Below, in pieces: positions 7,900 to 35,686 of a DNA stretch of 64,000 nt (positions within the stretch are counted from its first letter, which is position 1; each line of letters opens with the position of its first letter). The DNA lies in IMG/VR virus record IMGVR_UViG_3300045999_011383; one strand, written 5' to 3'. The notes under the pieces are model-generated. The model saw nothing but the letters and a program-made list of their open reading frames with translations. It was not told the origin of the DNA and searched no databases. Source of the DNA: a virus. Made by a program: the position numbers and the translations under genes.

Positions 7900-7916
7900 T
7901 GAATACTTTGCTGGCA

Positions 7917-7948
7917 AAAGAGTATATGAGTAATTGTATACTCTTTTT
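7917..7948 (+). terminator. rho-independent terminator
   Basis: AAAGAGTATA-10 nt-TATACTCTTT stem followed by TT. It lies just after the 7899 stop. Confidence 0.5.
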
Positions 7949-8059
7949 AAGCATTAAAAATTATCGTTATTTATGTTTGATTACCTATGCTAATATATTG
8001 TTGTATAATAACAAAAGTTCACTAATTTATTTTTTTAATTTTGGTTTAGAGCGAAGATT

Positions 8060-8878
8060 ATGTTTAGCCCACAGCAAGTATTAGACTACATAAAAACGCG
8101 GGGTGGCGATGTTGAACTAAGGGATTTAAACCACTTTGGCAATAGTTTAATCAAAAGATTAGAAGCAGCAAGATGTATTAAGATAACTGGTAGGGTAGGG
8201 GAACTTAAAGTATCTCTAATTTGCAGTAATTTTGACAGCAAGCAACAGAAAAATATTGAACCCACTGAAACCATTGTTCAACCCCCAAAACACCCTGAGA
8301 AGGCAAAATTAAAAAAGCCTAAAACACCATATAAGCGACTTAAACCCAAAAAAGAAAAAGCCCCAGGGATAAAAACTAAGTGTAAATTGTTAAGAGAATC
8401 AATACTTAATGAAATCAAAAAGTCCAATAAACCCATGTCCACAGAAGACATAAGAACGGCACTAACTTTAAATATGAGTGCAAAAAGGGTTTACTATCAT
8501 TTAAAAAGTCTTGAAAAACAAAATTTAATCACCTCATTTGATTGGCATATTATCTTTTGGGTAAGTATAGAGAAAAAAGACTTATTGAACAAAGCTCCCG
8601 CAATGTATGTACCAAGAGACAGAAACAAAGCCCTTGTTTTAGAAGTTTTAAAAACCGCAGATAAAGCGTTGTCTGTAAAAGATGTTGTTGCATTGTTGTT
8701 CTTTAAATTGTCCGCATATACAGTCAGAAGAATATTGTCAATACTTATTCAGGACGGCATTGCTCAAAGCAATGTTGTTCCTAGTAACAAAGAATTTTAC
8801 TATGCTTGTAACGACAACACAAAAGCAATAATAAGTTTGCAAAAATTAAAAAAAACAAAGTTTTCTCCCCTGAATTAA
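8060..8878 (+). CDS. multi winged-helix DNA-binding protein
   Basis: 272 aa with three wHTH-like segments (for example STEDIRTALTLNMSAKRVYYHLKSLEKQNLITS) and a Lys/Pro-rich linker. Confidence 0.5.
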   Translation: MFSPQQVLDYIKTRGGDVELRDLNHFGNSLIKRLEAARCIKITGRVGELKVSLICSNFDSKQQKNIEPTETIVQPPKHPEKAKLKKPKTPYKRLKPKKEKAPGIKTKCKLLRESILNEIKKSNKPMSTEDIRTALTLNMSAKRVYYHLKSLEKQNLITSFDWHIIFWVSIEKKDLLNKAPAMYVPRDRNKALVLEVLKTADKALSVKDVVALLFFKLSAYTVRRILSILIQDGIAQSNVVPSNKEFYYACNDNTKAIISLQKLKKTKFSPLN

Positions 8879-10374: not shown

Positions 10375-11511
10375 TTAATCTCTTATTTGCACAGGCATGG
10401 TTAAATATGTCATTTTTAATCCACTTAACGGAGTAAAAATAACTGGTTGCAACTGATGATTTAAGTGAATTTGAATCTCTGCGGAAGATAACTCTTTAAG
10501 TCCTTCCAAAAGATATTTAACATTAAACCCGACTTCGATATCAGTACCAGAAACTTGGGCTGGTATTGACTCTATAGCACTACCCACATCTTGAGTTTCG
10601 CAGGACAAAATTACTAGTTGATTGTCCCTATCTAAAGACAATTTGACAATATTGTTTTTCTGACTAGCTAACACAGAAATCCGTTCTAAGGTGCTAATAA
10701 ATTGTTTTCTGTCTATTGTTACTTCTCGCTCAAATTGCCTGGGAATTAATTGATTATAAGCAGGATAATGACCTTCTAATGTGCGACTGGTTAATCTTTG
10801 GTTTCCACGCACAAATACTACTTGTACCGGATCTATGTAAATTTCAACCTGTTCAGGAGCAGAACCCTGGCTTAACATTTTTTGCAATTCTCGTAACGCT
10901 TTAGCAGGAATTGTCACCTCTGATTCTTGATCCTCGTCTGACTCACGACTGGTTTCCACTACCGCTAATCTGTGTCCATCGGTAGAGGCAAATTCTATAC
11001 TATCTCGCTTTAAGAAAAAATGCACACCAGTGAGAACCTGTTTAGTCTCATCAGAGCTAGTAGCAAATAAAGTACGTTGCAGTCCCTCGCTAAGTGCCGA
11101 AGCAGAAACCTCAATTGGTTCTACCTCGTGAACTGTTGGCAACTCAGGAAACTCATCAGCATTCATAGCACGGACTTGATAGCGACCGCTTTTAGGTTTT
11201 AAAGTGACGGTAATACCACCGCTTTCTTCTTCAGTGCTACTGATTGTAATGTCACCCTGGGGTAATTTAGAAACAATATCTAAGAGTAGTTTAGAAGGTA
11301 TGGTAATTTCACCACCCTGTAACACCTGAGCATCAAAAGTAGTACAAATGCCTAAACTTAAATCAAAGGAAGTTAATTCCACTTGATCAGTGTCGCTGTT
11401 AGCCTTTAACAAAATATTAGCAAGTACCGGATGAGTTGGGCGTGAAGGAACAGCACGACTAGCCAAAGAAAGATTGGCGTTAAGTTCAGATTGAGAGCAA
11501 ATTAATTTCAT
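10375..11511 (-). CDS. dnaN: DNA polymerase III beta sliding clamp
   Basis: 378 aa. Canonical N-terminus MKLICSQSELNANLSLASRAVPSRPTHPVLANILLKA, and a three-domain length. Confidence 0.9.
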   Translation of the reverse strand: MKLICSQSELNANLSLASRAVPSRPTHPVLANILLKANSDTDQVELTSFDLSLGICTTFDAQVLQGGEITIPSKLLLDIVSKLPQGDITISSTEEESGGITVTLKPKSGRYQVRAMNADEFPELPTVHEVEPIEVSASALSEGLQRTLFATSSDETKQVLTGVHFFLKRDSIEFASTDGHRLAVVETSRESDEDQESEVTIPAKALRELQKMLSQGSAPEQVEIYIDPVQVVFVRGNQRLTSRTLEGHYPAYNQLIPRQFEREVTIDRKQFISTLERISVLASQKNNIVKLSLDRDNQLVILSCETQDVGSAIESIPAQVSGTDIEVGFNVKYLLEGLKELSSAEIQIHLNHQLQPVIFTPLSGLKMTYLTMPVQIRD

Positions 11512-11640: not shown

Positions 11641-13086
11641 ATGACCGAAAAACCAGGGGAATATACAGCCAAGTACAAGCCAACTCAATTAATTCAAGGA
11701 ACTGGACAGACTGCATTGATAACAGGATGGACTATCAAAGAAGCAGTCCAAAAACATTTGAGTAACCATGAATATGCAGTTATTGGGCAACTATACTCAC
11801 CCACAAGAGGGATTAACTTAGTGGTTCGGAATCTGCTATTAAATCCTCATGTTAGGTACTTAGTAATTCTCAATGGAACTAAGGAAGACAAAAACGCAGG
11901 TGGCTGTCAATGTTTAGCTGACTTTTTTCGTTATGGTTTCAATAAAGGTATTAGTGATATTGGTAGAAAAACCTGGGTAATTTCTTCTTCTATTACTGGC
12001 TATATTGACATCGAGATTGATATGAATGTTTTAAAAAAATTGCGTGAGTCTGTAGAAATCAAGGAAGTACAATCAATAGCCCAAGCTGTTGAAGCGGTCA
12101 GAGATTATGCAACTAAAAAACCCGTTGCACCTTGGGGAACACCCTTAGAATTTCCCATGAGTACAATTGAATCAAATACCCTACCAGGACCCCTCTATGG
12201 TCACAGAATAGAGGGTAAAACCATTGCGGAAACCTGGGTAAAAATCATCCATAGAATTAAAACAACCGGGGTGATCCGACCCACTAGCCATGATGGAACG
12301 TGGCAGGAATTGATAGATTTAATGGCAATTATTACCAATGAGCCTGATGATTTTTACTTTCCTGAACCCAACTATTTGCCAGTAGATAGAAGTTTTTTAC
12401 AAGAATATATTTCTCAGATATTAGAGGACGCGCCTAGTCAAGAAGGGATAAAATACACCTATGGACAAAGGTTACGTTCCTGGTTTGGTAAAGACCAGGT
12501 TCGACAGGTAATTGAAAAGCTAACCCATGACATTAATTCCGCCAGGGCTGTAATGTCTCTGTGGGATATTAAAGAAGACAACGATGAATCTAATCCCCCC
12601 TGTTTAAATCATATTTGGGTAAGGGTAGTCAGCGGTGAACTGTCTTTAACCGCAACCTTTCGTAGTAATGATATGTTCTCAGCATGGCCAGCCAATGCCA
12701 TGGGTTTAAGGGCTTTACAGAAATATATTTATAGTGCTTTATTGAGTTCCCATCAATCCCTCAAATTAGGTCCATTGATTACCATTAGTCAGAGCGCTCA
12801 TATTTATGATGATTGTTTTGAGAATGTCAGCAAGGTAATCTCATCTCAGTATGGTAAGATTGCCAAAAACCAGGATTACTCTGATCCTGTGGGGAATTTT
12901 ATTATTAGTAATCAAGAGGGTAAAGTCGTGGTTGAGCATACCACCCCTGGTTCAGGAGAGGTGGTTAATTGTTATTCAAATAAGTCCGCTTATAAGGTGT
13001 CACAAGAAATAATGAGAGATTGTCCAGGGTTGCAAAACTCCCATGCTATGTATTTGGGATGGGAGTTGTGCAAGTTAAAGTATTAA
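11641..13086 (+). CDS. thymidylate synthase / dNMP hydroxymethylase family enzyme with about 250-aa N-terminal extension
   Basis: ThyA-type motifs are present: PPCLNHIWV (catalytic Cys), FRSNDMFSAWPANAMGL and SQSAHIYDD. The N-terminal half is unassigned. Confidence 0.7.
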   Translation: MTEKPGEYTAKYKPTQLIQGTGQTALITGWTIKEAVQKHLSNHEYAVIGQLYSPTRGINLVVRNLLLNPHVRYLVILNGTKEDKNAGGCQCLADFFRYGFNKGISDIGRKTWVISSSITGYIDIEIDMNVLKKLRESVEIKEVQSIAQAVEAVRDYATKKPVAPWGTPLEFPMSTIESNTLPGPLYGHRIEGKTIAETWVKIIHRIKTTGVIRPTSHDGTWQELIDLMAIITNEPDDFYFPEPNYLPVDRSFLQEYISQILEDAPSQEGIKYTYGQRLRSWFGKDQVRQVIEKLTHDINSARAVMSLWDIKEDNDESNPPCLNHIWVRVVSGELSLTATFRSNDMFSAWPANAMGLRALQKYIYSALLSSHQSLKLGPLITISQSAHIYDDCFENVSKVISSQYGKIAKNQDYSDPVGNFIISNQEGKVVVEHTTPGSGEVVNCYSNKSAYKVSQEIMRDCPGLQNSHAMYLGWELCKLKY

Positions 13087-13201: not shown

Positions 13202-14224
13202 CTAGGAAACCTTGATTTCAGCGATCGCTTCTTCTAAATGTTCCTGAATCACTAATCCCTCTCGCTCTAAAATCGCTCGTTTAGCTGCATCTTGGGCAAC
13301 CCTCACAGCTTGAGCCGCAGAAAAATCTTTCATCTGTTCAATAATTCTTGGCCAGTTGATAGATCCCACTTCAATTGCAGATAGTGTTTCCCTCAGTATA
13401 AATTCTAGTTCTTTTTCTCCCGGTTTGGGTACTGCAATCAGATCATCAAATCTCCTCCATAGGGCAGTATCCAAAGATTTATTCAAATTCGTAGCGGCTA
13501 CCATAAGCCCAGAAGAAGGTTGATATTCATCCAAAATTTGCAAAAATGTATTTACTACTCGCTTAATTTCTCCCACTTCCTGAGAATCTTCTCGTGTCTT
13601 AGCAATTGAGTCACATTCATCTAAAAATAATAAACATGGATTTTTTGCAGCATCCTCAAATACCAGTCTTAAATTACTGGCTGTCTCCCCTAAAAAAGAC
13701 GACACCATTGCATCAAAACGTACTTTTAACAGTGGTAAACCTGTATTCCAGGCTAAACGTTCTGCTCCTAATGTCTTTCCACACCCAGGCGGTCCATAAA
13801 GGAGAATTTTTTGCCGATAACGCAGCCCATGATGAGCTAGTCTATCTCTTGCTGCATACTCGCGCTCAATTCTTTGAAAACGCTTTTCAATTTTTTCAGG
13901 CAATACCATGTAATGACGTAGTTTATCCCTTGGTATGGTCGTTACCAAGGGAAGGTTAAAACGCTTACTGGTTGGTAATTCGCTTAAACCCTGTAAGTTT
14001 TCTCCTGTTGTTTGTGTGGCATTTGCAAGAAAGGAAACAGGTTTGATAGGGTCGGGAGATTGATCTCTGGGTTTCTTTTTAGCAATATTCTCTAACTGGT
14101 CAGCAAGGAGGGTATGCCCTTTACTGCGCTCTTCTTCTATGACCAGATATGCAAGTTTGTCAATCGCTTCTTGGTCTGAACTAGCGATCGCTCTGAAAAA
14201 CCTTTTGAGAATCTCTCCCTTCAT
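13202..14224 (-). CDS. classic-clade AAA+ ATPase
   Basis: Walker A GPPGCGKT, Walker B LLFLDECD, sensor VAATN and the second-region-of-homology motif ALWRRFD. Confidence 0.8.
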   Translation of the reverse strand: MKGEILKRFFRAIASSDQEAIDKLAYLVIEEERSKGHTLLADQLENIAKKKPRDQSPDPIKPVSFLANATQTTGENLQGLSELPTSKRFNLPLVTTIPRDKLRHYMVLPEKIEKRFQRIEREYAARDRLAHHGLRYRQKILLYGPPGCGKTLGAERLAWNTGLPLLKVRFDAMVSSFLGETASNLRLVFEDAAKNPCLLFLDECDSIAKTREDSQEVGEIKRVVNTFLQILDEYQPSSGLMVAATNLNKSLDTALWRRFDDLIAVPKPGEKELEFILRETLSAIEVGSINWPRIIEQMKDFSAAQAVRVAQDAAKRAILEREGLVIQEHLEEAIAEIKVS

Positions 14225-14323: not shown

Positions 14324-14406
14324 TTGCAACTGGGCTTTGACTTGCAATTAACCCAGTCCCTCAAGGTCGGCTTCTTGCAATTAACCCAGTTCCCCAAGTC
14401 CGGTTT
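14324..14406. repeat. decayed CRISPR repeat remnants
   Basis: TTGCAACTGGGCTT (14324..14337) is the exact reverse complement of repeat positions 22-35. Two 30-bp units CTTGCAATTAACCCAGT(C/T)CC(T/C)CAAG(G/T)(T/C)CGG lie at 14341 and 14374. Confidence 0.55.
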
Positions 14407-15543
14407 GCTTCAACTATCCTCAGTCCCTAAGCCCAGTTGCAAGTGTCAAGGGGTTTATTTTCGAAACCCTTATATTTCCTACGTCGTTTCAACTATCCTC
14501 AGTCCCTAAGCCCAGTTGCAAGTGAAGGACGTGATTCTAATGCAGCAAAGAACATCTGTTTCAACTATCCTCAGTCCCTAAGCCCAGTTGCAAGACACAT
14601 TCTTTATCTTTTAAATATAGCTTATACCATCTGTAGTTTCAACTATCCTCAGTCCCTAAGCCCAGTTGCAAGAACACCTTACCACCTTTAAGGTAAGACG
14701 GCACTTTAGGTTTCAACTATCCTCAGTCCCTAAGCCCAGTTGCAAGACAGAATTGAGAGAACTTTCAAGCCATAAGAGAGTAGCGTTTCAACTATCCTCA
14801 GTCCCTAAGCCCAGTTGCAAGATTTTCAAAAATTTAAAAATGAATCTGGACATGAAGATGTTTCAACTATCCTCAGTCCCTAAGCCCAGTTGCAAGAATG
14901 CACATTAACAAAAAAAAACCATGAAAAACCGTTTCAACTATCCTCAGTCCCTAAGCCCAGTTGCAAGAAAACTTATCAGATACTTAATAAGGCTATAGGT
15001 TAGTTTCAACTATCCTCAGTCCCTAAGCCCAGTTGCAAGCTCCCATTTATACAGCTTACTAGCAGCGCAAATAGTTTCAACTATCCTCAGTCCCTAAGCC
15101 CAGTTGCAAGTCAAAAATCAACAGGAATTGGCCACTACTATTGAAGGATGTTTCAACTATCCTCAGTCCCTAAGCCCAGTTGCAAGATAAAGCCGTCCGG
15201 GGAGGCATGACTAATGAGGATGGTTTCAACTATCCTCAGTCCCTAAGCCCAGTTGCAAGTTGAGACAGTTAAACCCAAGGTACTTTAACCTAGTTTCAAC
15301 TATCCTCAGTCCCTAAGCCCAGTTGCAAGAAAGTATTAAAGAAATGCTCAAACTACCGGCATGTTTCAACTATCCTCAGTCCCTAAGCCCAGTTGCAAGT
15401 TGCTACATTTACCATACTTATGGAAACTGTCAATGTTTCAACTATCCTCAGTCCCTAAGCCCAGTTGCAAGTTACTTTGTAAGACGTTATGTAAGACGGC
15501 GATGGAGTTTCAACTATCCTCAGTCCCTAAGCCCAGTTGCAAG
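14407..15543. CRISPR. CRISPR array with 16 repeats of 37 bp and 15 spacers
   Basis: Repeat GTTTCAACTATCCTCAGTCCCTAAGCCCAGTTGCAAG starts at 14407 (this copy begins GCTT), 14486, 14558, 14636, 14710, 14785, 14860, 14931, 15003, 15074, 15150, 15223, 15293, 15363, 15435 and 15507. The spacers are unique and 33-42 bp long. Confidence 0.95.
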
Positions 15544-15886
15544 TCCCGGCTTTCAAAAGCTTTATAAGTCAAGGGTTTCAAAGGCAATTCTGGCGGACCT
15601 GCTAAAAAATCTCATTTCAGCCGCTTAAATCAGCTTGGGTCTTTAAAAGAAACTGAGCGAAACTCTTGCAATGTCATGGTTCTGGACTTTTGGCGAATGT
15701 CCAGGGTTTTTACCCTAGCTTTGATATGCCAAAAAGATGAGATAGTTGCCAGCCATAGTTCCGGCTGGTCTTTGGGGGTTGTCGCCTTCCCCCTTACTTT
15801 TTAGGGTAAAACCCTTACAAGTCATAAGCTAACATTACATTAGCTACCCGTCCAAACTGCGGTAATTTAATATTAACCTAGTCCTA
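15544..15886 (-). ncRNA. candidate leader / tracrRNA-like structured region (hypothetical)
   Basis: 343 nt with no ORF between the nuclease stop and the array. Hairpins at 15682..15704, 15703..15716, 15749..15768 and 15774..15793. GAGATAGTTG at 15739..15748 resembles the repeat end. Confidence 0.3.
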
Positions 15887-17761
15887 TTACTTTGTCAAGC
15901 GTTTTTTCTTAAATCTTTTAGGCTTTTGATAAACCAGCCTAACATTATGGTATTTGACCTCTCCCAATTCAAAACCACCATTCTGTTTATGATTTCTAGC
16001 AGCATTGGTATCAGCTTGTTGGGCAACGTCAAATAATTTACAGTCAGGGTTTTTACAGACAAATTCATACTGCGATCGCCTTTCCCCTTTCTGTCCGCAA
16101 CAATGGCATATTTGAGAGCTATAATTAGCAGGTGGTTCATGGAAGTTGCCACCTCTATTTTCTATTTTTTGCTTGGTTTTAGCTTTCAAGTCACCTAAAC
16201 ATCTTTGTCTCATAATCCAGTTTAAACCACGTTTAGCAGATGCACCATTGTGAGCATATCCCACACCCTCTGGTAATGCTTTTGGATCTACTTGTTTAAG
16301 TAAGTTGGTAACTTGTGTATCCTCCCAAGATATATGTTCATAAGTGCGAGATAATCTTGTGGATAACTTGTGATTAAAGGCATTAGAGGAATTAGCCCCG
16401 CGTTCGTGTAGACGGCTGATTTTTTGTTGTAACTTAGATTCATTCTTTGTCTTGATTCTAGAGGTCTTGTTGCCTAAGCTTTTCCATTTTTTATCATTAA
16501 TTAATTCAGCGTTGTCTAGACGTGATTGTAATTCCTCAATGTGAATTGAGATCCGCTCCCTAGTAAGGTTAGGAAGGAATAAAGCCCCATGATCTGTAGA
16601 CACTACAGCCTGTACCCCAGGGTCAATACCCGCACTCAGATTTTTACCTTTTAAAACTGATGACTGCTTAATTTGTTGCTCAATGAATTTCAGTTTTGAC
16701 TTGATATCTTGGTACTCTTCACTGTCTTCACCAAACTCTTTTTTTACCTTGGGTAACTTATTTGTTAGTACAGACTTTTCCTCTTGCAATGGGTGAGCAA
16801 CTACAATATTAATGTAGTATCCTGACTGCTGTTTGGTAATCATGTATGTCCGTGGCAAAACCTGAGAAAGATTCAATCTTTTTACCCAGTTTTTGTCAGC
16901 AATAGTGATGGGAGTAAGTCCGGTGACAGTAACTATGTTTTTGTCAATGTCAATCCTGTTAGGCGCACATTGATTATTAGATAAAGTTGCAATCTTGTCT
17001 ACATCTTTTTTGAATTTTGGCTTTCTACTGTTTATCCTTTTAGGATCTAAAAATGCCTTCCAAGATTCCTTAAAAAATGCTAACAGCCCGCCAATATAGT
17101 GGGAAGAAACCTGCAAGTCTGGTAAATTTTGGAATGCTCTTAAAGTATTTAATCCAGTCACGTTGTCAAGTTTTTCCAAAGTAGTCAGTTCCCTACCCTC
17201 ATACTTTCCACTAGGGAATGTGCGGTATTTGTGAGGGACTATTTCTATCCGTTGCCAGGGCTTATCGCCTTTAACTAATTTGTACCCCTTGACGTAAATA
17301 ACGCCTTTTTTGGTATTAACTGGAATATTGATATTTTCATCTCTCTTCCAATAATTCCCGCCTGTGGCTATTTGACAGGATAATCCTTCATAAGCACTAT
17401 TTCCAAGCCTTAATGGCACAGGAATAATGCCTTCCAAGCTAAATGGACTCCATCTGGTAAATATCTCAAATTCTTTCTTGCTAACTAATTCCTGTTCTTT
17501 TTTAGACAGCTTAGGCTTATCCTTGGTGGAATAGTAATCTTTAACTAATTGTTGTTGCTCAGGTTTAAGTTTTTCCAGTTTTTCAGTAGCCTTGGTTAAA
17601 TCTGCACTGCGTTTAGCAGCCCAAGCATACCAATCTACGCAGTGATTGTGTAGTTGGTTGGAAAGTGCTAAATTCCACAGCCATGTTAATTCATCTAAGT
17701 AGCGATCGCACACAGCCGCCTGTTCTGATGAGAGTTTGATTTTAATCTTAATTGTCTTCAT
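15887..17761 (-). CDS. TnpB/Cas12-family RNA-guided-nuclease-like protein (candidate type V effector)
   Basis: 624 aa. RuvC-I AGIDPGV, RuvC-II ISWEDT, Zn finger CHCCG...CKNPDC, RuvC-III QADTNAARN. TnpB-like N-terminus IKIKLSSEQAAVCDRYLDELTWLWNLAL. Confidence 0.85.
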   Translation of the reverse strand: MKTIKIKIKLSSEQAAVCDRYLDELTWLWNLALSNQLHNHCVDWYAWAAKRSADLTKATEKLEKLKPEQQQLVKDYYSTKDKPKLSKKEQELVSKKEFEIFTRWSPFSLEGIIPVPLRLGNSAYEGLSCQIATGGNYWKRDENINIPVNTKKGVIYVKGYKLVKGDKPWQRIEIVPHKYRTFPSGKYEGRELTTLEKLDNVTGLNTLRAFQNLPDLQVSSHYIGGLLAFFKESWKAFLDPKRINSRKPKFKKDVDKIATLSNNQCAPNRIDIDKNIVTVTGLTPITIADKNWVKRLNLSQVLPRTYMITKQQSGYYINIVVAHPLQEEKSVLTNKLPKVKKEFGEDSEEYQDIKSKLKFIEQQIKQSSVLKGKNLSAGIDPGVQAVVSTDHGALFLPNLTRERISIHIEELQSRLDNAELINDKKWKSLGNKTSRIKTKNESKLQQKISRLHERGANSSNAFNHKLSTRLSRTYEHISWEDTQVTNLLKQVDPKALPEGVGYAHNGASAKRGLNWIMRQRCLGDLKAKTKQKIENRGGNFHEPPANYSSQICHCCGQKGERRSQYEFVCKNPDCKLFDVAQQADTNAARNHKQNGGFELGEVKYHNVRLVYQKPKRFKKKRLTK

Positions 17762-19477: not shown

Positions 19478-19579
19478 ATAAAAAGAAGTAAACGACGTAA
19501 CCGACATCAACTAAAACAGCAACTAAGAAAATTAGATGCGATCGCACTTAAACAAATCCATAGCAGCTTGGGGGGATAA
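19478..19579 (+). pseudogene. start-less fragment related to the N-terminus of the 30825..31118 protein
   Basis: Hand translation IKRSKRRNRHQLKQQLRKLDAIALKQIHSSLGG* versus MKTKRQARRHRHLLKKQLRELDAIAKKQINNNYNLAASSWGG. No ATG, and a stop lies just upstream. Confidence 0.35.
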
Positions 19580-19785
19580 ACCCGACATATCTAAGCTTTT
19601 AAGTAGATAGCCCAACGGGAAATACTGCTTTCTTGTTCTGATAAACCCACCAAAAAACAAAGTCCTTTAATTAAAGAAGCGATCGCGCTTATTCAAAAAG
19701 GATTGTCAATTTTAATAGAATTAATTTAGTTTTTAAAGCGCTCTTGACAGGGCGTTTTTTGTTGTTTAAAAACTTAATTTAATTG

Positions 19786-19815
19786 TTGATTAATTGTTAA
19801 TCAATGTGTTATACT
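19786..19815 (+). promoter_or_regulatory. possible promoter of the RAMP operon
   Basis: TTGATT, 18 nt, then TGT-TATACT (extended -10). It lies about 40 nt upstream of the GTG at 19853. Confidence 0.35.
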
Positions 19816-19852: not shown

Positions 19853-20371
19853 GTGACAACCAATCATTACGGAATGCCACAGACACGAGACAAGTGTTAT
19901 GGCGTGGCTGCTTGTTTAAGTTATTGGGTTTTTAAATGCCGTGACAGGAAACGTAGTCCAGCCATGGGAACTAAAACCTGGACATATTTGGAATCTTCTA
20001 TCAAGAATTGTGCAGAAATATCCACAAATTTAGAAGATTATCTACAAAATCTTTGTGATAAATTGATATCGCAATTAAGACCTGTAGAGCTAACCAAAAT
20101 TATTCAACCAACTCAGAGAATACTGAGAATTAATGAAGATGCAACTGAAATCAAGGAACTACCAATAGATCGAAGTTTGGTTTTTATGGGGTGGCTTGAC
20201 TTGCTTGCCGATATTGAACCCCACGGATTTAGTGAGTGGGACGTAATGGAATTGTTAAGAACAAAAACAGGAGTTATTCAAGTAATTTGTCGTCTGCGAT
20301 TTGAAGAAGATAGAAGTGTGGGGCTTGATGAACCAGAAGAATTTATTGAGGTAGAGGTGACAAATGTTTGA
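19853..20371 (+). CDS. first gene of the RAMP operon, possible small-subunit (Cas11-like) protein
   Basis: 172 aa with a GTG start after GGGAAAG. The 8-nt overlap with the next gene and the size fit, but I saw no diagnostic motif. Confidence 0.3.
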   Translation: MTTNHYGMPQTRDKCYGVAACLSYWVFKCRDRKRSPAMGTKTWTYLESSIKNCAEISTNLEDYLQNLCDKLISQLRPVELTKIIQPTQRILRINEDATEIKELPIDRSLVFMGWLDLLADIEPHGFSEWDVMELLRTKTGVIQVICRLRFEEDRSVGLDEPEEFIEVEVTNV

Positions 20372-21497
20372 TAATTATAATATTTTTGACAGAGAGAAAT
20401 TAACCCTGCATTGCTTAATCACGCTACAGACACCATTGAGCCATATAGGCGAAGTGTCTGGCAATGTTAGCAATCTGAAAACTACTAAGTTATTGGACTT
20501 TGAAGGTAATCCTAGAAGTGTTTTTGTCTATTCTGGTAATGCAATCAGAAACGGTATTTTGCGCCGGGTAGGAGTGGCAGCAGCACTCACGGAATTAGGA
20601 ATTAAGGTAAATCCAGATACTCACCATACAATGTTTGCTGGCGGGCGAATTGATGGGGGGACAGCTTCGGATATGGAACTGGATAAAAAGATCCGGGTCT
20701 TTATGCCTTGGCTATCAGTATTGGGAACAGCCAAACCCATAGGTGTTTTTGGGACTAAAGAAGCCCAGATGGTAGCTGGTAGAAGTAATATTGGCAGTGG
20801 TTATTTAGTCTGCTATGAGTCAGCAGAATACGTTTACAACCAACTCCCAGCAGTTTTACCACCGGAAATACAGCCAACTATGGCCTTATTAATTGAAGCT
20901 AAAACCAGACTTTCTTCCGACCCTTTTGTATCCACAAAATCAGAAGACTTAACTAACTGGAATCAAGCAAAATCAGAATGTTTGCCACTGATCAAAAAAG
21001 CAATGAAAACATGGACTGAATACTTAACAATTGATCAGACAACTCGCAGAGATAGCACTTTAGATCCCAACTTACTCAAATTTCTACCATCAGAAGTACA
21101 AGCACAATTAACAGGTGATGGTAAAACTAAAGAAAAAACTAAATCAGATCAGATGATTGCGTCTGACAGGCTGATCATGCCCGGTGCTAAACTTTATTCT
21201 CGATGGGATCTAACTTGTACTCAAATAGAAGAGGGATGGATATTTGATACTTTACTCAAGTTTTCAGAATCACCTTATATTGGTGGTAAAGGCAATCGTG
21301 GCAATGGCAGGGTTCATCTTGATTTCTGGTTTCAGTCTGACCATGAACGGGGGTTATTGTGTTCTCTGAAAGATGGAATTATGGGAGATAGGTTTCTTAA
21401 TTCCCATCAAAAATATCGGGAATATATCAATCAGTATCAGCAGTTTTTAAGTGAAGCAAAAACATCCAAGGAATTAAGGAAGTTGTTAGGTGAATAA
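20364..21497 (+). CDS. RAMP protein, Cas7/Csf2-like backbone subunit
   Basis: 377 aa. N-terminal LHCLITLQTPLSHIG, then YSGNAIRNGILRR, and a C-terminal glycine-rich loop YIGGKGNRGNGRV typical of RAMPs. Confidence 0.6.
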   Translation: MFDNYNIFDREKLTLHCLITLQTPLSHIGEVSGNVSNLKTTKLLDFEGNPRSVFVYSGNAIRNGILRRVGVAAALTELGIKVNPDTHHTMFAGGRIDGGTASDMELDKKIRVFMPWLSVLGTAKPIGVFGTKEAQMVAGRSNIGSGYLVCYESAEYVYNQLPAVLPPEIQPTMALLIEAKTRLSSDPFVSTKSEDLTNWNQAKSECLPLIKKAMKTWTEYLTIDQTTRRDSTLDPNLLKFLPSEVQAQLTGDGKTKEKTKSDQMIASDRLIMPGAKLYSRWDLTCTQIEEGWIFDTLLKFSESPYIGGKGNRGNGRVHLDFWFQSDHERGLLCSLKDGIMGDRFLNSHQKYREYINQYQQFLSEAKTSKELRKLLGE

Positions 21498-22176
21498 TTT
21501 AAAAGTCACTGCATATTTGTCTACACCGATTGGTGTCTATGACAATTGGAGTCCTTCTTTGGAGGGACTTCTTACCTATAGATTACTAGAAGAAAATAAT
21601 CTATTGTCTCCCAATCCCACCGCAGAGCAAGTAGCAAAGGTTCAGAATTTTTTAGTAAATGAATTACCGCTTAAACAGAATACAATAATGAATGATAAGT
21701 ATTTCTGTGTAAGTTCACCTTGCTATGTGGTTCAAGGTGAGGCTACTGATAAATATCGGAAAAGATGGGACAATCACGAAAATAATCTGAACTGGGGAAA
21801 AAGAAAGCCTAAATTCTTGACGGGTGAAGGTGCAGAAAAGTCCTATGATTTACCGCTATACACTCGTTTAACAAATAGTATTAGTTGGTTTGTAACAGGC
21901 GACAGAACCAAGATTGACGCTCTATTGTCACCTGTTACCCATATTCAGAAAAAACGAAGTTATGGCAATGGTGAAGTTAAGCAATGGCAACTAGAAATAG
22001 TTTATGACGACTATCATTTGTGGCGAGATAATAAACTAATGCGTCCTATGCCCGTGAAGTTAATATCACAAAAAATAGATAATCCTCAAATGATTTGGGG
22101 ATGGAAAAGCCCGTCTTGGTTAGCAGAAAATAAAGAACTTTGTTATATGCCAAAGGACAATGTGATTTATGCTTAG
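21490..22176 (+). CDS. RAMP protein, Cas5/Csf3-like
   Basis: 228 aa. LKVTAYLSTPIGVYDNWSPSLEGLLTYRLL N-terminus and a KKRSYGNGEV glycine loop. Overlaps both neighbouring genes. Confidence 0.5.
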   Translation: MNNLKVTAYLSTPIGVYDNWSPSLEGLLTYRLLEENNLLSPNPTAEQVAKVQNFLVNELPLKQNTIMNDKYFCVSSPCYVVQGEATDKYRKRWDNHENNLNWGKRKPKFLTGEGAEKSYDLPLYTRLTNSISWFVTGDRTKIDALLSPVTHIQKKRSYGNGEVKQWQLEIVYDDYHLWRDNKLMRPMPVKLISQKIDNPQMIWGWKSPSWLAENKELCYMPKDNVIYA

Positions 22177-22915
22177 TAATGGCTCTGGGGTTCAATACCC
22201 TTGGTTGAAAAAGAAAATTACTAAAGCTATTAATTTCATTAATCAGTGGCTAGAACAATGCAACTATCAGGTTTATGCAAGTATTTCCGGTGGTAAAGAT
22301 AGCTTAGTAATGTCTCATTTGATCAGGAAAGTTTACCCTGATTGCCCGTTAGTTTGGGTAAATCAAGGGCTGTTAGCAGAATGGGATGATTGTATTGAAT
22401 TATTGGAATACTTGAAAACTCAAAACTGGAACATTATTGAGCTTTGTCCAGTTCGTGATTTATGGCATTTATACATAGATCACGGAGTTCCGTTAGAGGG
22501 TACGATGGATACAAAAGTAGATAAATTAATCAACCAAAAATTGATTTATGATCCATTGCAAGAATACCAAGAAATCAACAATATCAAAGGGTACGCATGG
22601 GGAATAAGGAAGCAAGAAAGCAAAAACAGAGCATTTTATCTTAACAAGTACGGTGAAGTTCATGAACTAAAAAATGGGTTAATTTGTTGCTCGCCTATTG
22701 CTCACTGGACTACAGAAGAAATATGGCAGTACATAGATATGTACTCACTCAAATACCCAGCAATTTATGACATTAACAAAATGACAGTCAGGAATGGTTG
22801 CCCGATTGGAACTACAGGAGCAAACTGGGGTAGATTAGCTGAATTAAAAAGATATTACCCCAATATTTACAACCAATTTGTTGATAAATTCCCACAAATA
22901 TCGAACTATGTCTAA
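22169..22915 (+). CDS. PAPS-reductase/CysH-like PP-loop protein
   Basis: PP-loop SISGGKDS and WGIRKQESKNR. I saw no C-terminal ECGLH motif (it reads RNGCPIG instead). Confidence 0.8.
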   Translation: MLSNGSGVQYPWLKKKITKAINFINQWLEQCNYQVYASISGGKDSLVMSHLIRKVYPDCPLVWVNQGLLAEWDDCIELLEYLKTQNWNIIELCPVRDLWHLYIDHGVPLEGTMDTKVDKLINQKLIYDPLQEYQEINNIKGYAWGIRKQESKNRAFYLNKYGEVHELKNGLICCSPIAHWTTEEIWQYIDMYSLKYPAIYDINKMTVRNGCPIGTTGANWGRLAELKRYYPNIYNQFVDKFPQISNYV

Positions 22916-23666
22916 TTGCTACCTTTGCGCTAAACCAGCATCAAATCCACTAGAATTATCCAATACTTTCACCATGCACTCATCGGCTAAGTGTCCAGAC
23001 TCTAAGCTGCTGTGCGATCGCTGCTATTCTACAATTTCTGGTAATCAAAAGCAGTTATGGTATTGGAATGAAGGTAAAAATAAGTGGTCAAAACTGTGGG
23101 GACGATCTTTGTCCAGGGTGTACCAAGGCGATACTTTAATAGCACCAATAATTAAAGGCACTCACACTGAAGGCAAAGATACTTTCAGTGTGGTTAGAAA
23201 CTTATTGACGCGGGTAGAAATCAGGGAATATTTATTAAATCCTCCTGAGCCACCGTTCACTATCGCTATAGCAGAATCAGGACAAAAACACATTATCCCA
23301 TGGGCATTAGAAGCGCGTAGCTGTAACTTTTTTCCAATTCAATTTGAGTTAGACACGGTTTATATTGACAACAGATTCAAGGAATCTTTGCAAGTATATG
23401 AACAACTAATGGGATTAGGGTTTAGTAAGTCTGAAATTGATTCAGGAAACTACAGAAGCGATAGATTGATGAAAGTGTTTGATAAATTTTGGGAACTTGA
23501 GGAATCCATAAAAGCCATTAGAGGGACTAGATTAATGGAATTAATAAATTACGTCGCTCAACTACAATCAAGTGCCGTCGTGGCGGAAATAAAGCCAATT
23601 CCTGTAATTCCTGTTTCTCCCACGAGTCCAGACAAATCAAATCCAGTTCAGTTATCGTTGTTTTAG
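22908..23666 (+). CDS. Zn-ribbon protein, Csf1-like large-subunit candidate, with C-terminal clamp-binding motif
   Basis: The ATG at 22908 overlaps the cysH-like stop (ATGTCTAA). N-terminal CYLC...CPDSKLLCDRC. The C-terminus is NPVQLSLF followed by the stop. Confidence 0.45.
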   Translation: MSNCYLCAKPASNPLELSNTFTMHSSAKCPDSKLLCDRCYSTISGNQKQLWYWNEGKNKWSKLWGRSLSRVYQGDTLIAPIIKGTHTEGKDTFSVVRNLLTRVEIREYLLNPPEPPFTIAIAESGQKHIIPWALEARSCNFFPIQFELDTVYIDNRFKESLQVYEQLMGLGFSKSEIDSGNYRSDRLMKVFDKFWELEESIKAIRGTRLMELINYVAQLQSSAVVAEIKPIPVIPVSPTSPDKSNPVQLSLF

Positions 23667-23699
23667 CAAAAACCCTTATAATTCCGATCCGTTAAAAAT

Positions 23700-23774
23700 A
23701 ACGCTGGAGTCTTTAAAATCAACGCTGGAGTCAGCAAAGATAACGCTGGAGTCCTTAAAATTAACATTGGAGTC
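23700..23774. repeat. four 21-bp-phased iterons AAC(G/A)(C/T)TGGAGTC
   Basis: Cores at 23700, 23721, 23742 and 23763. They are followed by the AT-rich tandem AACAATCTTAATT x2 (23805..23830). The same core occurs at 41848..41901. Confidence 0.7.
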
Positions 23775-23854
23775 GTTAATTTTAAGGTTTCATCTATATT
23801 ATTAAACAATCTTAATTAACAATCTTAATTAAGAGTCTCTAGTTTAAGTACAAA

Positions 23855-23886
23855 TAAAAATGCTCACCAAGGTGCATGGTGAGCAT
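23855..23886 (-). terminator. rho-independent terminator after the C5-methyltransferase operon
   Basis: ATGCTCACCA-7 nt-TGGTGAGCAT stem. On the minus strand it is followed by TTTTTATTT. Confidence 0.6.
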
Positions 23887-25548: not shown

Positions 25549-26712
25549 TTAGCACATACTTAGTTGGGTTTCATTGTTTGCAAGTGAAGCGCAAATATCG
25601 TACATCTCAGCCCATACGTAATCATCTTTTGCAATTGACGACAAAGGCTGTCCTGCGTATTTTGCTTGCATAGATATTTGAAAATATCTAGTTAACATTT
25701 TTTTGATCAAACTTATCTTGGTTTTCTCGCTTACTTGCAATCTGTAGTCCCCTGTTTCAGTTTTTTCTACAAAAACTCTAAAACCAGAAATTATCGGGAA
25801 AACCAAAGATTGCTGAGTTATCACACAGGTAAGTATTTCATGGTTAGGCAACTTGGTATATTTCCTAGCGTCGTTTCCACTTTTTGTAAACCTTGTTCCT
25901 GTAGCACTAGAATGATGCTGTTCTTCTAGCCTTTTGAATATTTTAGACTGAATATCTATAGCGTCGTGAACTAACGAAAAAAGTTTTTTTGGTACTAAGT
26001 CTCGACGTATAGAATTAGCGGCGTGTATTGAAAGCTTTGGATGCTTCTTTTTGCTGGTATTGGACGGAGAATAACTTGGATCTAGTGCCAAAATAAGACT
26101 GCAAATCCTGGCAATTGTACAGCACCCATCAACATTTGTTGTCTGCACTCCAAATTGTCCTTCGTGATAAATAATTCTGTACTTTTCAAGCTGCGGCTTC
26201 ATCCAGTCATAGTCACCGCTATAATTTGCTAAACTCATTTTTGAGACGGCTTTACTGGTATTTAATGCGATCGCCTTTTCTTTTAATTCAATTTCATCAA
26301 AACCTGAATAGATTATGATGTTTACAAAAACTTGAGAAATATCTATCTCTTTAAAATTAGCAGCCACGCAAAAAGCTAATAGCCGATGACCACCATCTAA
26401 CAATCCATCGGAATCTTTAAACGTCAATCTAATCAAACTTGCAGTAATTTTTGAGCAATCAGCAGCAAGATGAAGTGGTGAACTAATAACCGAAACACCC
26501 TTTTTTAAGGACTCAATTATTGACTCGGTAACAGAGTTTTTTGTCGGTCTTCTTACGTTGGCAGTTAGCGGGATTTTCCATAAAAGATGAGATTCGCTTT
26601 TACCGTTAGCTTCAACTAAATCCTTAAGAGTAGTTGATACATGATACTCTTTTCCCTGTTGAACTGGAAATTCATTTAACGACCGGATGTTTAAACTAAT
26701 AGCGTGTGCCAT
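25549..26712 (-). CDS. DGQHR/ParB-nuclease-fold (DndB/DUF262-like) protein
   Basis: 387 aa. SDGLLDGGHRLLAF resembles the DGQHR/DGQQR motif. The assignment is tentative. Confidence 0.45.
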   Translation of the reverse strand: MAHAISLNIRSLNEFPVQQGKEYHVSTTLKDLVEANGKSESHLLWKIPLTANVRRPTKNSVTESIIESLKKGVSVISSPLHLAADCSKITASLIRLTFKDSDGLLDGGHRLLAFCVAANFKEIDISQVFVNIIIYSGFDEIELKEKAIALNTSKAVSKMSLANYSGDYDWMKPQLEKYRIIYHEGQFGVQTTNVDGCCTIARICSLILALDPSYSPSNTSKKKHPKLSIHAANSIRRDLVPKKLFSLVHDAIDIQSKIFKRLEEQHHSSATGTRFTKSGNDARKYTKLPNHEILTCVITQQSLVFPIISGFRVFVEKTETGDYRLQVSEKTKISLIKKMLTRYFQISMQAKYAGQPLSSIAKDDYVWAEMYDICASLANNETQLSMC

Positions 26713-27627: not shown

Positions 27628-28482
27628 ATGATTAATCAAGTAATTCATGGTGATTGTTTTGAAGTTTTGAAAACTATTCCTGATGGTTCTATTGACGCTG
27701 TAATCACAGATCCGCCTTACATGACAACTGATTTAAACTTTGATAAAACAGGCTTTGATGTTGACTTATTCTTAAAATTATTATTACCAAAACTTAAAAG
27801 TGATGGACAATTAGCTGCATTTGGGAGTATTGAATTACTTGCTAAGTTTAGCGGTATTTATCCTATTAGATGGTCAGGAATGTGGTTAAAACCGAGAGGA
27901 GTGATGAGAACTCATACAGCCAAGAAACCTATGAGCAAAAGCGAACCTTACTGTATATTTGCTCACCCAAAACATAAAGTATCAAACCTTGTTTATAACA
28001 AAATATTATTGCCAGGAGAGCCTTATGAAAAAAAACAAAAAAATACTGGCTATATTAGAGACGGCAAAAATCAAATAGATAGAGCAAATACTTCTGCATG
28101 GACTAAGGACGGGTATATCTCAAAAAACCTGGGTACAAGACAACAAACAGATGTTATTGAATCTCCGTTCAAAGGCTGCATGAAACATCATGAACGAACC
28201 ATTCACCCCACACAAAAGCCTGTAGCACTGATATCTACATTGGTTCAGTGGATAACCAACCCCGGCGATACAGTCCTTGACCCTTTTGCTGGTAGTGGTA
28301 CAACAGCACTAGCCTGTAAAGAACTCAACAGAAACTATATCTGCATTGAGAAGGAACGGGAATATATTGACATTATTCATCAACGCCTAAACACACCCAT
28401 AGCTGAAAGGGGATTAACTGTAGAGGAACAGGTAGAGATTGAGAAAACTAAGTCACCTTATCAACAGTTGTCATTGTTTTAG
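27628..28482 (+). CDS. beta-class N6A/N4C DNA methyltransferase with C-terminal clamp-binding motif
   Basis: DPPY (VITDPPYM) lies before FxGxG (DPFAGSGTT). The C-terminus is YQQLSLF followed by the stop. Confidence 0.85.
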   Translation: MINQVIHGDCFEVLKTIPDGSIDAVITDPPYMTTDLNFDKTGFDVDLFLKLLLPKLKSDGQLAAFGSIELLAKFSGIYPIRWSGMWLKPRGVMRTHTAKKPMSKSEPYCIFAHPKHKVSNLVYNKILLPGEPYEKKQKNTGYIRDGKNQIDRANTSAWTKDGYISKNLGTRQQTDVIESPFKGCMKHHERTIHPTQKPVALISTLVQWITNPGDTVLDPFAGSGTTALACKELNRNYICIEKEREYIDIIHQRLNTPIAERGLTVEEQVEIEKTKSPYQQLSLF

Positions 28483-28526: not shown

Positions 28527-29270
28527 CTATTCAAACACTCTATTAACCCTTCTTCCTGATTCAGAGCATATATTACGGCATTGATTAAAACCATTAGCTG
28601 CATTATCATCTATCTTTTCAGATGCGATCGCTTCTGCTAATCCCACAGCCATTAATTCAACCCTGGAAAGTCCATCTCTGAGTTTGGTAATCCCACGACT
28701 TTGCTTGACCTCTTTGGCTGTTCCCCCAAGCAAGGGTTTGTAAATCTCATTGGTGCAGATTGCATATTCGTGGGGTGCAGTAACACCATGTTCTTTCAGT
28801 GTGTCAGTAAATTGCACCCTGGTTTCTAGTCCTTCTATGCGCTGCTGAATCCACTCTTCAGTATGTCCTTGTTTTTGCCATCCCTTTTTAGCACGTTCCC
28901 TACCGCGCTTATATGCTAACTCTGGGTTTACCTCCTCTTCTATGCGCTCTTTAACCCAATCATAAAACTGAGATTTGAGAGAAGGGGACAAATATCCGGC
29001 ATAATCAATGGCCAATTTCCAGTGAGCTAGTGTTTTACCGTTGCGTCCTCTTGTAACTTTAAAAACATCTGATAATCTGATATTATCTTTTAGTCTTTTG
29101 CTGTCAAGGATTTGATTGATTAGCATATCCGTACTGGGAAGTAATCGCCACTTAGCAGGGGTTTGGCTTTCGGGTCTTCCTGCCATTTCCCATAACTTAG
29201 TAAGATTAATAAAATCCTGATCAATTTCTACAGAAATCCCATTGTGGATAAAAGCTGATATATTAGACAT
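28527..29270 (-). CDS. KilA-N domain protein
   Basis: FIHNGISVEIDQDFINLTKLWEMAGRPESQTPAKWRLLPST fits a KilA-N domain. I prefer the ATG at 29270 to the GTG at 29330 used in the ORF track. Confidence 0.55.
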   Translation of the reverse strand: MSNISAFIHNGISVEIDQDFINLTKLWEMAGRPESQTPAKWRLLPSTDMLINQILDSKRLKDNIRLSDVFKVTRGRNGKTLAHWKLAIDYAGYLSPSLKSQFYDWVKERIEEEVNPELAYKRGRERAKKGWQKQGHTEEWIQQRIEGLETRVQFTDTLKEHGVTAPHEYAICTNEIYKPLLGGTAKEVKQSRGITKLRDGLSRVELMAVGLAEAIASEKIDDNAANGFNQCRNICSESGRRVNRVFE

Positions 29271-29345
29271 GATTAGCCTACTTTGTCTAGGTTGGTTGCC
29301 AGTGATATCGCCGTTGGGAATGCTGACCACATTCTTAACGGTGCT

Positions 29346-35020: not shown

Positions 35021-35686
35021 TCATGGCTTATGAATTAATGTTGACGCTGAACAATCTTTCCCTAATTTAATATCAAAGATAGCGTCGTAGCATTGCCGAC
35101 CGCTGTTCATGACTGGTTTTCCGTTCTTAAACTGCGGAACACCTTGGATTGTTTTTTGGCACTTACTCATAGGAATACCTTCCTTAAGGTAATCCACTCT
35201 ATCCGCGATCGGATAGATGTGACGAATATGTGCGTTCAAAGATTCCCAAGCTTTAGCTCTTCCTTGAGAGCAATTCCAATCCAGTGGCATTAGAAATAGT
35301 AGTCGGGAATTGGGGCTATTATTAAGTAGTTCCAAGGATTTAGCAACTGCTTCAACACACAGAGAAAAAGGCGGGTTAGTGATGATAAGGTCGCATCCCC
35401 ATATAGAGACATCCTTAAAAAAATCACCATTTACCCATGTAGCTGACTTGGCTTTTTCTTTCCCTTGCAAGAATCGGGAATACTTGATTTCTATACATTC
35501 TATTGAGCGATCGCTCGGTAGGTATTTAGCTATCTGCCCAGAACCAGCAAAGGGTTCTAGTATTTGTTTGTCCGTGGGTAAGACCAGTCTAGACATAGCG
35601 ACAGCAAGCCAGTCAGGTGTCTCATAGTCGTCGTTTGTGAAGTCACTCGTGGTGACTTGTTCTTGAAAAAGTGCTAATTGGTTCAT
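35021..35686 (-). CDS. N6-adenine DNA methyltransferase with N-terminal clamp-binding-like motif
   Basis: Motif I EPFAGSG lies before motif IV ITNPPFS. The protein starts MNQLALFQ. Confidence 0.8.
   Translation of the reverse strand: MNQLALFQEQVTTSDFTNDDYETPDWLAVAMSRLVLPTDKQILEPFAGSGQIAKYLPSDRSIECIEIKYSRFLQGKEKAKSATWVNGDFFKDVSIWGCDLIITNPPFSLCVEAVAKSLELLNNSPNSRLLFLMPLDWNCSQGRAKAWESLNAHIRHIYPIADRVDYLKEGIPMSKCQKTIQGVPQFKNGKPVMNSGRQCYDAIFDIKLGKDCSASTLIHKP

Follow-up and report, generated by a model that had tools for sequence, protein, structure and literature searches.

A type IV-B CRISPR-Cas cassette of a likely cyanophage with a putative β-clamp-binding tail on its Csf1 subunit

What does a type IV-B CRISPR-Cas complex do, and where in the cell does it act, when it is carried by a virus? 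The biological function of type IV-B is still unknown, and reviews look to the linked cysH-like gene and to the as yet unseen Csf1 and Csf3 subunits for an answer. Here, we analysed a five-gene cassette at positions 19853-23666 of the IMG/VR virus record IMGVR_UViG_3300045999_011383; the whole stretch of 64,000 nucleotides is called the window in the following. A first-pass annotation made from the letters alone had described the five genes as an operon resembling type IV-B in a cyanophage. We tentatively propose that virus-borne type IV-B complexes are tethered to the replisome through a QLSLF-type peptide at the end of Csf1, which would place an RNA-loaded filament and a CysH-like enzyme on newly replicated DNA, and that in the phage lineage encoding the type V nuclease Cas12p the cassette may in addition cooperate with the adjacent type V array. 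We assign this reading a probability of roughly 35%. If it is true, the function of type IV-B would be replication-coupled, in the sense of modification, protection or blocking of nascent DNA.

The window listing of open reading frames (ORFs) gives five co-directional ORFs on the plus strand (Table 1). Searches with Csf1, Csf2, Csf3, Cas11 and CysH profiles, which the first-pass annotation had proposed as a check, returned type IV assignments, while the local Pfam scan gave a single domain, the PAPS reductase of the fourth protein. Instead of the non-Cas folds that would have spoken against the annotation, profile and structure searches gave type IV Csf2 for the 377-aa protein, and the profiles gave Csf3 for the 228-aa protein. 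The former, read as Cas7/Csf2-like on its repeat-associated mysterious protein (RAMP) motifs, indeed carries both of them (SGNAIRNGILRR at residues 57-68, GGKGNRGNG at residues 307-315) and matches the PADLOC profile Csf2_0_IV with an E value of 9e-35. Its AlphaFold model (predicted local distance difference test, pLDDT, 73) retrieved type IV Csf2 chains at all Foldseek ranks from 1 to 33 (best E 2e-9), and the best match of its family profile among PDB sequences was the type IV-B Csf2 of 7jhy (E 9e-4). The protein is a long form of Csf2 and has some 90 residues more than usual, mostly in helices (about 160-250). Csf2 proteins of ordinary length (260-350 aa) align to it in two parts, query residues 15-160 and 250-325, and skip approximately 160-250. 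At E ≤1e-30, it matched 20 clusters of a 50%-identity library, and most full-length members of these clusters have 380-445 aa. Its loop at residues 24-45, the 'catalytic loop', is nearly invariant and modelled with low confidence; a conserved aspartate sought in this loop turned out to be E30. The Cas5/Csf3-like reading of the 228-aa protein is borne out by a full-length match to PADLOC Csf3_0_IV (E 2.5e-40), by the Pfam entry PF27782 (Csf3) on record for an identical protein and by a full-length match to NCBIfam TIGR03116 (E 2.7e-9) below the cut-off. TIGR03115, the Csf2 equivalog, scored 29 bits against a cut-off of 130. As the NCBIfam equivalog matches of csf1, csf2 and csf3 all stay below their cut-offs, we consider the three genes divergent members of their families.

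The 248-aa protein belongs to the PP-loop PAPS-reductase family, as annotated (Pfam PF01507, E 6e-18; SGGKDS and RKQESKNR both present), and shows weaker matches to BrxP, DndC and SspD. Residues S40, G42, K43, D44, S45, R147, E150 and R154 are invariant among aligned homologues. It had been described as apparently devoid of the ECGLH tail, and its alignment to E. coli CysH does stop before that tail; among its homologues no conserved cysteine was found, the C of RNGCPIG being P in most of them. A true assimilatory PAPS/APS reductase was rejected, given a TIGR00434 score of 47.9 bits against a cut-off of 165, the lack of a conserved cysteine and the missing tail. An SGGKDS PP-loop without the catalytic cysteine is a described trait of the type IV-B 'CasCysH' (Taylor et al., PMC8175902), and these matching features lead us to assign the gene as a IV-B cysH. 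The last protein matches PADLOC Csf1_0_IV (E 5e-21). Its predicted CxxC...CxxC zinc ribbon consists of C4/C7 and C36/C39, invariant in 17 aligned homologues, and occupies the N-terminus (nt 22917-23024), followed by a proline-rich linker and a C-terminal QLSLF (nt 23649-23663). For the small first protein, weaker evidence suggests a Cas11-like subunit: three PADLOC typeIV_Cas11 profiles match (2.5e-6, 1.2e-4 and 5.7e-3), a profile of its family aligns with the ORF in cas11 position of the Rhodovastum type IV-B cassette (hhalign probability 73%, E 3e-5), and its AlphaFold model is all-helical with eight helices (pLDDT 81). Its homologues mostly measure 170-172 aa.

An overlap of 8 nt between consecutive genes had been noticed at every junction, and we found the same; at all four (ATGTTTGA, GTGAATAA, ATGCTTAG and ATGTCTAA) the start codon overlaps the previous stop, and the five genes are translationally coupled. 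The csf1 ORF can be extended to a TTG at 22878, and gene callers chose an ATG at 19874 for the cas11-like ORF, resulting in 165 aa; a GGGAAAG ribosome-binding site precedes the GTG start. The promoter-like site lies 37 nt before the operon start and downstream of a terminator-like hairpin at 19735-19758, and the hairpin behind csf1 has its T-run on the minus strand only. Compared with L011, a related locus with unsaturated dS, the ratios of nonsynonymous to synonymous substitution (dN/dS) are 0.07 for the cas11-like gene, 0.08 for csf2, 0.18 for csf3, 0.015 for the cysH-like gene and 0.13 for csf1, values that place each of the five under purifying selection. Of 36 related loci, nearly all have this gene set in this order; the arrangement, including the 8-nt overlaps, is kept down to 46% Csf2 identity. 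The low dN/dS together with the conserved gene order indicates that the five ORFs are real genes. Two variants of the layout may be recorded: L024 has two Csf1-like ORFs within the cassette (5523-6215 and 7868-8665), and in the 74-kb relative L005 an AcrVA2-like gene (PF26125; 13429-14238), of anti-Cas12 type, overlaps the end of csf1 by 4 nt and appears to be co-transcribed with the operon.

The type IV-B reading is supported by type IV profiles for four subunits, by the PF01507 enzyme and by the gene content. Among about 45 ORFs of the window (small ORFs covered in part), scans with Pfam, PADLOC, NCBIfam or PHROGs revealed no DinG, RecD, Cas10-like, Cas6/Csf5 or Cas1/Cas2 protein. The only helicase was DnaB (42583-43920), and the set that marks type IV-A, namely CasDinG, Cas6/Csf5 and an array of its own, was not found. 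A Cas11 subunit and a cysH-like gene in the absence of a helicase represent the gene content of subtype IV-B, and we regard this assignment as highly probable. In two respects the cassette deviates from what is usual. CRISPR arrays are missing from 97.8% of type IV-B loci (PMC7937560), whereas the window has a 16-repeat array 4.3 kb upstream. The gene order, which had been noted as different from the canonical one, does differ in that csf1 stands last and cysH lies inside the coupled unit, but a cas11-first order is already known from a Rhodovastum plasmid (cas11-csf2-csf3-(85 aa)-cysH).

How could such a complex be brought to its site of action? Our suggestion starts from the C-terminus of Csf1 (...SPDKSNPVQLSLF-COOH, with the end NPVQLSLF), in which a proline-rich, poorly conserved linker is followed by QLSLF. 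The consensus β-clamp-binding pentapeptide is QL[SD]LF, and the Csf1 end matches it. A scan of IMG/VR with a Csf1 profile yielded 69 loci. In a relaxed form, the terminal motif was present in 14 of 63 distinct complete Csf1-like ORFs versus 8 of 1552 other distinct ORFs, and in a strict form in 10 of the 63 versus 4 of the 1552. All four strict background matches are homologues of the N6/N4 DNA methyltransferase of the window phage, whose DNA methyltransferases appear to ride the clamp likewise. The motif also ends Csf1 in distant viral cassettes with canonical gene order, namely L098 (RQLSLF), L094 (RQLTLFEA), L097, L100 and L095; L098 and L094 are high-GC, with the order csf1-csf2-csf3-cysH, and PADLOC calls the neighbours type IV Cas8, Cas7 and Cas5. 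A tblastn search for plasmid Csf1 with a clamp motif, using Csf1 of L098, returned Gloeobacter only, and a literature search found no paper that ties clamp-binding motifs to Cas proteins. The DnaN clamp encoded by the phage itself is a candidate partner of the tail. We lean towards the view that the tail really binds a clamp. Recurring in distant viral type IV-B systems, it offers a specific handle that is cheap to test.

Judging from homology to 7jhy, several copies of Csf2 and a minor filament of Cas11 would wrap RNA, with Csf3 and Csf1 capping the filament. The co-translated CysH-like protein would, by its sequence, be an ATP α-hydrolase, i.e. an adenylating enzyme, rather than a sulfonucleotide reductase. 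The flexible tail of Csf1 (QLSLF-COOH) may dock the complex on a β sliding clamp, either that of the host or the DnaN of the phage, and docking would concentrate the Csf complex on replicating DNA. Speculatively, PP-loop chemistry or simple occupancy could be brought to nascent nucleic acid in this way, and the cassette might serve as a nuclease-free, replication-coupled device for phage counter-defence or for competition between mobile elements. The neighbours of the operon include several genes of conflict type (Dcm, the N6/N4 methyltransferase, an AIPR-like gene, an IetA-like ATPase and Cas12p). A more specific version, in which the CysH-like enzyme modifies nucleic acid at the fork, seems doubtful to us.

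The position of the enzyme within the operon varies. In L013 (11806-13207), whose Csf2 is 95% identical to that of the window, the SGGKDS-type enzyme is replaced by an SWGKDS-type enzyme plus a 230-aa protein, and tblastn with the CysH-like enzyme of the window against L013 gave no match. L015 (13364-14915; Csf2 84-85% identical) has the same SWGKDS variant, approximately 30% identical to the enzyme of the window, and L003 (11859-12933; within a Csf2 identity range of 79-85% with L015) combines the SWGKDS type with a cupin gene. The SWGKDS-type enzymes comprise 234-238 aa and stand between csf3 and csf1; the 230-aa partner has an HDLHH motif. Since the type of enzyme differs between nearly identical operons, the cysH slot behaves as a swappable module, as would be expected of an exchangeable effector.

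Several observations weigh against a replisome-tethered complex. The Csf1 motif was recognised by comparison with the published consensus sequence. About three quarters of the distinct Csf1 variants lack the tail, among them those of the close relatives L003 and L005, as do three of three plasmid copies (Gloeobacter, Rhodococcus and Rhodovastum); clamp binding is thus not essential to type IV-B in general. The minor filament is affected as well: against the PDB, the Cas11-like model gave Foldseek noise only (best E 1.8) and its profile found no sequence, and hhalign of the family profile with the equivalent Rhodococcus ORF gave no match, which makes Cas11 the weakest of our assignments. Lastly, the type IV-B complex of Mycobacterium sp. 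JS623 bound heterogeneous RNA in E. coli (PMC7937560), a result that fits an RNA sponge equally well.

Could the complex then simply be such a sponge? Here, the filament would form on small RNAs including CRISPR RNAs (crRNAs) of the host, with no sequence preference, and serve as an anti-CRISPR or anti-guide device with the CysH-like protein as accessory. The RNA content of the JS623 complex is what this predicts, most loci come without an array or Cas6, and the cassette is phage-borne in a counter-defence neighbourhood, with methyltransferases in the window and the AcrVA2-like gene in the operon of L005. A sponge, however, leaves unexplained why a CysH-like enzyme is strictly linked and, with its dN/dS of 0.015, so constrained, and the clamp-type tail of Csf1 remains without a role. 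An anti-CRISPR of five genes would also be unusually costly (PMC7038947). We regard this explanation as unlikely.

The next alternative takes its evidence from a second system in the same phage. A 624-aa protein encoded upstream of the operon aligns over residues 1-615 with 'Cas12p' of PDB 9jfs/9jg3 (1268 bits, roughly 90% identity). Cas12p is a phage-encoded 'Cas12 hacker' that needs host thioredoxin and a trans-activating crRNA (tracrRNA), and the preprint describing it mentions type IV zero times (bioRxiv 10.1101/2025.01.20.633832). The shape of the repeats had suggested Cas12k of a CRISPR-associated transposon; with the match to Cas12p, and with no Tns genes detected, this was rejected. 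The array of 37-nt repeats (GTTTCAACTATCCTCAGTCCCTAAGCCCAGTTGCAAG) adjoins the nuclease gene and has repeats of the Cas12p lineage, and most likely belongs to the type V system accordingly. The 340-nt gap between array and cas12p (15546-15886) contains short anti-repeat matches at 15741-15748 and 15665-15671 and probably encodes the tracrRNA. Of 11 Cas12p loci in IMG/VR, nine lie on long contigs. Each of these contigs has the Csf operon as well, on the strand of Cas12p and 0.9-8 kb upstream of it; the two are divergent in the window, where the pair is retained through an inversion. Arrays with related repeats follow Cas12p in L011-L013. The nine contigs represent a single lineage (Csf2 78-95% identical), and for this reason the linkage is suggestive rather than demonstrated. 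The cassette stands beside a phage nuclease with a solved structure. Taken together with the clade of phage cassettes, the clamp-type tail and the variable cysH slot, this makes the RNA cargo of type IV-B and its site of action directly testable.

Spacer 2 of the array (14523-14557) matches L012 at 19511-19545 (33 of 35 nt) and L014 at 13631-13660 (29 of 30 aligned nt). In both sibling phages, the matched segment codes for RuvC-III of a different, second Cas12/TnpB-like gene (547-611 aa). One phage CRISPR system seems to target the effector gene of another phage, and the array would then serve in conflicts among phages. The bases flanking the match differ from the published GTN protospacer-adjacent motif. 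Just ahead of the array, two tandem 33-nt units without spacers (CTTGCAATTAACCCAGT..., 14341-14406) resemble the repeat of a second, 28-repeat array of L012 (17117-19098), located beside the second Cas12-like gene; they are probably what is left of a second system that was lost. Thioredoxin is bound by classical CysH as well as by Cas12p. A thioredoxin link between the two proteins found no support, however: the CysH-like protein lacks the cysteine needed for a mixed disulfide with thioredoxin, nor did the window show a thioredoxin gene.

Given this neighbourhood, the Csf complex might load crRNAs from Cas12p-associated or host arrays and bind and silence rival phages or host genes in an RNA-guided, nuclease-free manner, as type IV-A does. 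Array and Cas12p lie only 2-5 kb from the operon, the pair has survived an inversion, a spacer of the window points to sibling phages, the Gloeobacter plasmid relative carries cas6 inside its operon, and scavenging of crRNAs by type IV-B has long been proposed (PMC8175902). Yet Cas12p and arrays are both missing within 10 kb of most operons of the wider clade (Csf2 46-65%, some 79-80% identical), the nine co-occurrences are not independent, and the phage lacks a Cas6. Cas12p itself uses a tracrRNA, and its authors saw no confident predicted interaction with neighbouring ORFs (bioRxiv 10.1101/2025.01.20.633832); the JS623 complex did not load co-expressed type I-E crRNAs (PMC8175902). Scavenging of crRNAs is, to our mind, about as improbable as the sponge, and neither of these two published ideas accounts for both the constrained enzyme and the tail.

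A minimal derivative of type III or type I, the outcome named at first sight as an alternative to type IV, has very little in its favour. Type IV is thought to stem from type III, and Csf2 shows Csm3 matches, which are weak in PADLOC (0.017) and start at rank 34 in Foldseek; all strong matches to Cas7, Cas5, Cas8 and Cas11 profiles are to type IV models, however, the large subunit is a 252-aa zinc-ribbon Csf1 instead of Cas10 or Cas8, and the cysH-like gene is a hallmark of type IV-B. That the cassette is an inactive remnant passively carried by the phage, for which one might cite the lack of a nuclease, helicase or adaptation module and a deletion in L036 (10001-10419) that fuses the first 50 csf2 codons to the 3′ portion of csf1, can practically be dismissed in view of the strong purifying selection on all five genes, the overlaps and gene order kept down to 46% identity and the hundreds of metagenomic homologues.

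Table 1 Features of the window that bear on the type IV-B cassette
Feature	Position	Strand	Details
DNA polymerase III β sliding clamp (DnaN)	10375-11511	-	three Pfam clamp domains, E 4e-35 to 2e-25
CRISPR array	14407-15543	+	16 repeats of 37 nt, 15 spacers of 33-42 nt
Cas12p ('Cas12 hacker'), type V effector	15887-17761	-	624 aa; full-length alignment to PDB 9jfs/9jg3
Promoter-like site	19786-19815	+	TTGATT-18-TATACT with upstream TG; consensus scan
cas11-like small subunit	19853-20371	+	172 aa, GTG start
csf2 (Cas7 backbone subunit)	20364-21497	+	377 aa
csf3 (Cas5)	21490-22176	+	228 aa
cysH-like PP-loop ATP pyrophosphatase, 'CasCysH'	22169-22915	+	248 aa
csf1 (Cas8-like large subunit)	22908-23666	+	252 aa from ATG
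Iteron-like block	23682-23835		four 21-nt repeats (core AACGCTGGAGTC), then an AT-rich 13-nt repeat; directly after csf1
Terminator-like hairpin	23860-23886		ten bp; between convergent csf1 and dcm
N6/N4 DNA methyltransferase	27628-28482	+	Pfam PF01555, E 2.6e-31; ends ...QQLSLF
Methyltransferase-like ORF	35021-35686	-	begins MNQLALF

Who carries the cassette? The cyanophage setting proposed in the first-pass annotation is well supported by tailed-phage genes (a lambda-J-like tail protein, a tail assembly protein and a Mu-type portal), by an excess of the HIP1 octamer (GCGATCGC, 39 occurrences in the window versus 0.3 expected) and by homologues in viral contigs and cyanobacterial bins. Replication proteins encoded in the window are DnaB, a DnaD-like helicase loader and the DnaN clamp. 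In IMG/VR, at least 26 viral contigs (8-95 kb) carry related operons, and 300 homologues of Csf2 were counted in metagenomes, with the names Dolichospermum, Sphaerospermopsis and Cylindrospermopsis among the metagenome bins that have homologues. Among 185,579 species-representative genomes, a homologue was present on two short contigs of metagenome-assembled genomes only. No match was obtained with the window Csf2 in 50,697 phage records (tblastn), nor with 12-30 kb of window sequence in the phage collection of GenBank and the plasmid collection PLSDB (megablast), and all homologues bearing a name in our searches are annotated as 'hypothetical protein' only. On balance, we believe that a tailed phage of filamentous, Nostocales-type cyanobacteria carries a functional type IV-B cassette; the locus reveals a large clade of such cassettes in phages of bloom-forming cyanobacteria.

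The iteron-like block behind csf1 is a 76%-identical copy of 41834-41965, a segment inside the DnaD-like helicase-loader gene that is likely the replication origin, by analogy to lambda gene O. The block directly follows csf1 in L011 and L012, too, and is absent in more distant relatives; as it is confined to the nearest relatives of the window, iterons as a general feature of such cassettes were rejected. Further observations concern the rest of the phage. Defence-type genes at 13202-14224 (-), 25549-26712 (-), 28527-29330 (-) and 48509-49267 (+) comprise an IetA-like AAA ATPase (E 2.5e-79), an AIPR-like gene (weak Pfam match), a KilA-N/PDC-S13 protein and an ORF matching PADLOC PDC-M41B/M30B (3e-104). 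A 481-aa protein (11641-13086, +) combines a thymidylate-synthase-like domain with the pterin-binding DUF4346 and a weakly MtrA-like N-terminus, and may be involved in nucleotide modification or hypermodification. Intergenic repeats of 65-72 nt form two pairs with 88-92% identity (27545-27616/29345-29416 and 47052-47116/48214-48278, the latter rich in GATCGC), which may be shared promoter or regulatory elements, and a perfect 18-nt tandem repeat (TTCTTCTCTCTTTCGTGC) fills 63874-64000 with at least seven copies and continues past the window end. Rfam and tRNA scans came back empty.

Among known systems, the cassette from a megaplasmid of Mycobacterium sp. JS623 (PDB 7jhy, PMC7937560) likewise comprises Csf1, Cas11, Csf2 and Csf3 with a linked cysH-like gene and likewise goes without DinG, Cas6 and adaptation genes. 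An actinobacterial plasmid carries it, whereas ours is phage-borne with a cyanobacterial host; its order is csf1-cas11-csf2-csf3 with cysH outside, in contrast to cas11-csf2-csf3-cysH-csf1 with all genes overlapping; and its Csf2 has 300 aa, lacks the extra helical region and is of very low similarity to the family of the window. Among annotated replicons, the Gloeobacter morelensis plasmid pGMOR1 (NZ_CP063846.1, 77.4-82.5 kb; L048) comes closest. Its Csf2 is 49.6% identical, its Cas11-like protein aligns with that of the window at an hhalign probability of 100%, and the order cas11-csf2-...-csf3-cysH-...-csf1 is shared, with all Csf genes annotated as 'hypothetical'. It differs in being a linear plasmid instead of a phage, in a cas6 (type I-MYXAN Cmx6; L048 9207-9998) between csf2 and csf3, in a cupin gene after cysH and in a Csf1 without the QLSLF tail. 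No CRISPR array was found within 8 kb of its cassette; a second gene of the PAPS-reductase family and a Dcm gene lie nearby.

Type IV-B in viruses as such has been reported before, for an archaeal Fuxivirus and, according to a statement cited in PMC10848311, for 'several lytic phages'. The Fuxiviridae (PMC10848311) likewise carry a viral type IV-B effector module with a CysH-like gene, but have archaeal hosts, the canonical order and a two-repeat mini-array. In the isolated actinophage SPI1 of Skermania (KR011061.1; L118 2837-6470), Orf40-44 form an unannotated cassette of type IV-B appearance in canonical order, with a Csf2 homologue 35% identical to that of L098 and a CysH-like protein with an SWSGGKDS loop, whereas the protein in Csf1 position has neither the CxxC pairs nor the clamp motif; SPI1 is a possible cultured model for phage-borne type IV-B. 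Type IV-A, in which a Csf complex acts together with CasDinG, provides the closest solved folds for the window Csf2 (PDB 8rc2, 8s35 and 7xfz) and an example of nuclease-free interference with rival mobile elements. It comes with DinG, Cas6/Csf5 and an array of its own, as a rule without Cas11 or cysH, and the genes that define it are absent from our cassette. The Cas12p system (PDB 9jfs), although found in the same phage lineage, is a separate class 2 system of type V. Our literature search found no paper that names 'type IV-B' and 'cyanophage' together.

For the proposed docking step, the nearest parallel comes from transposition. TnsE of Tn7 is a β-clamp-directed protein of a mobile element, in which contact with the clamp likewise steers a mobile-element machine to replicating DNA; the two proteins share no homology, and the analogy is limited to the terminal motif of QL[SD]LF type. 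What sets the locus apart is its clade of cyanophages, a long form of Csf2, a cysH inside the coupled unit, a csf1 placed last and ending in a clamp-type tail, and the neighbourhood of Cas12p.

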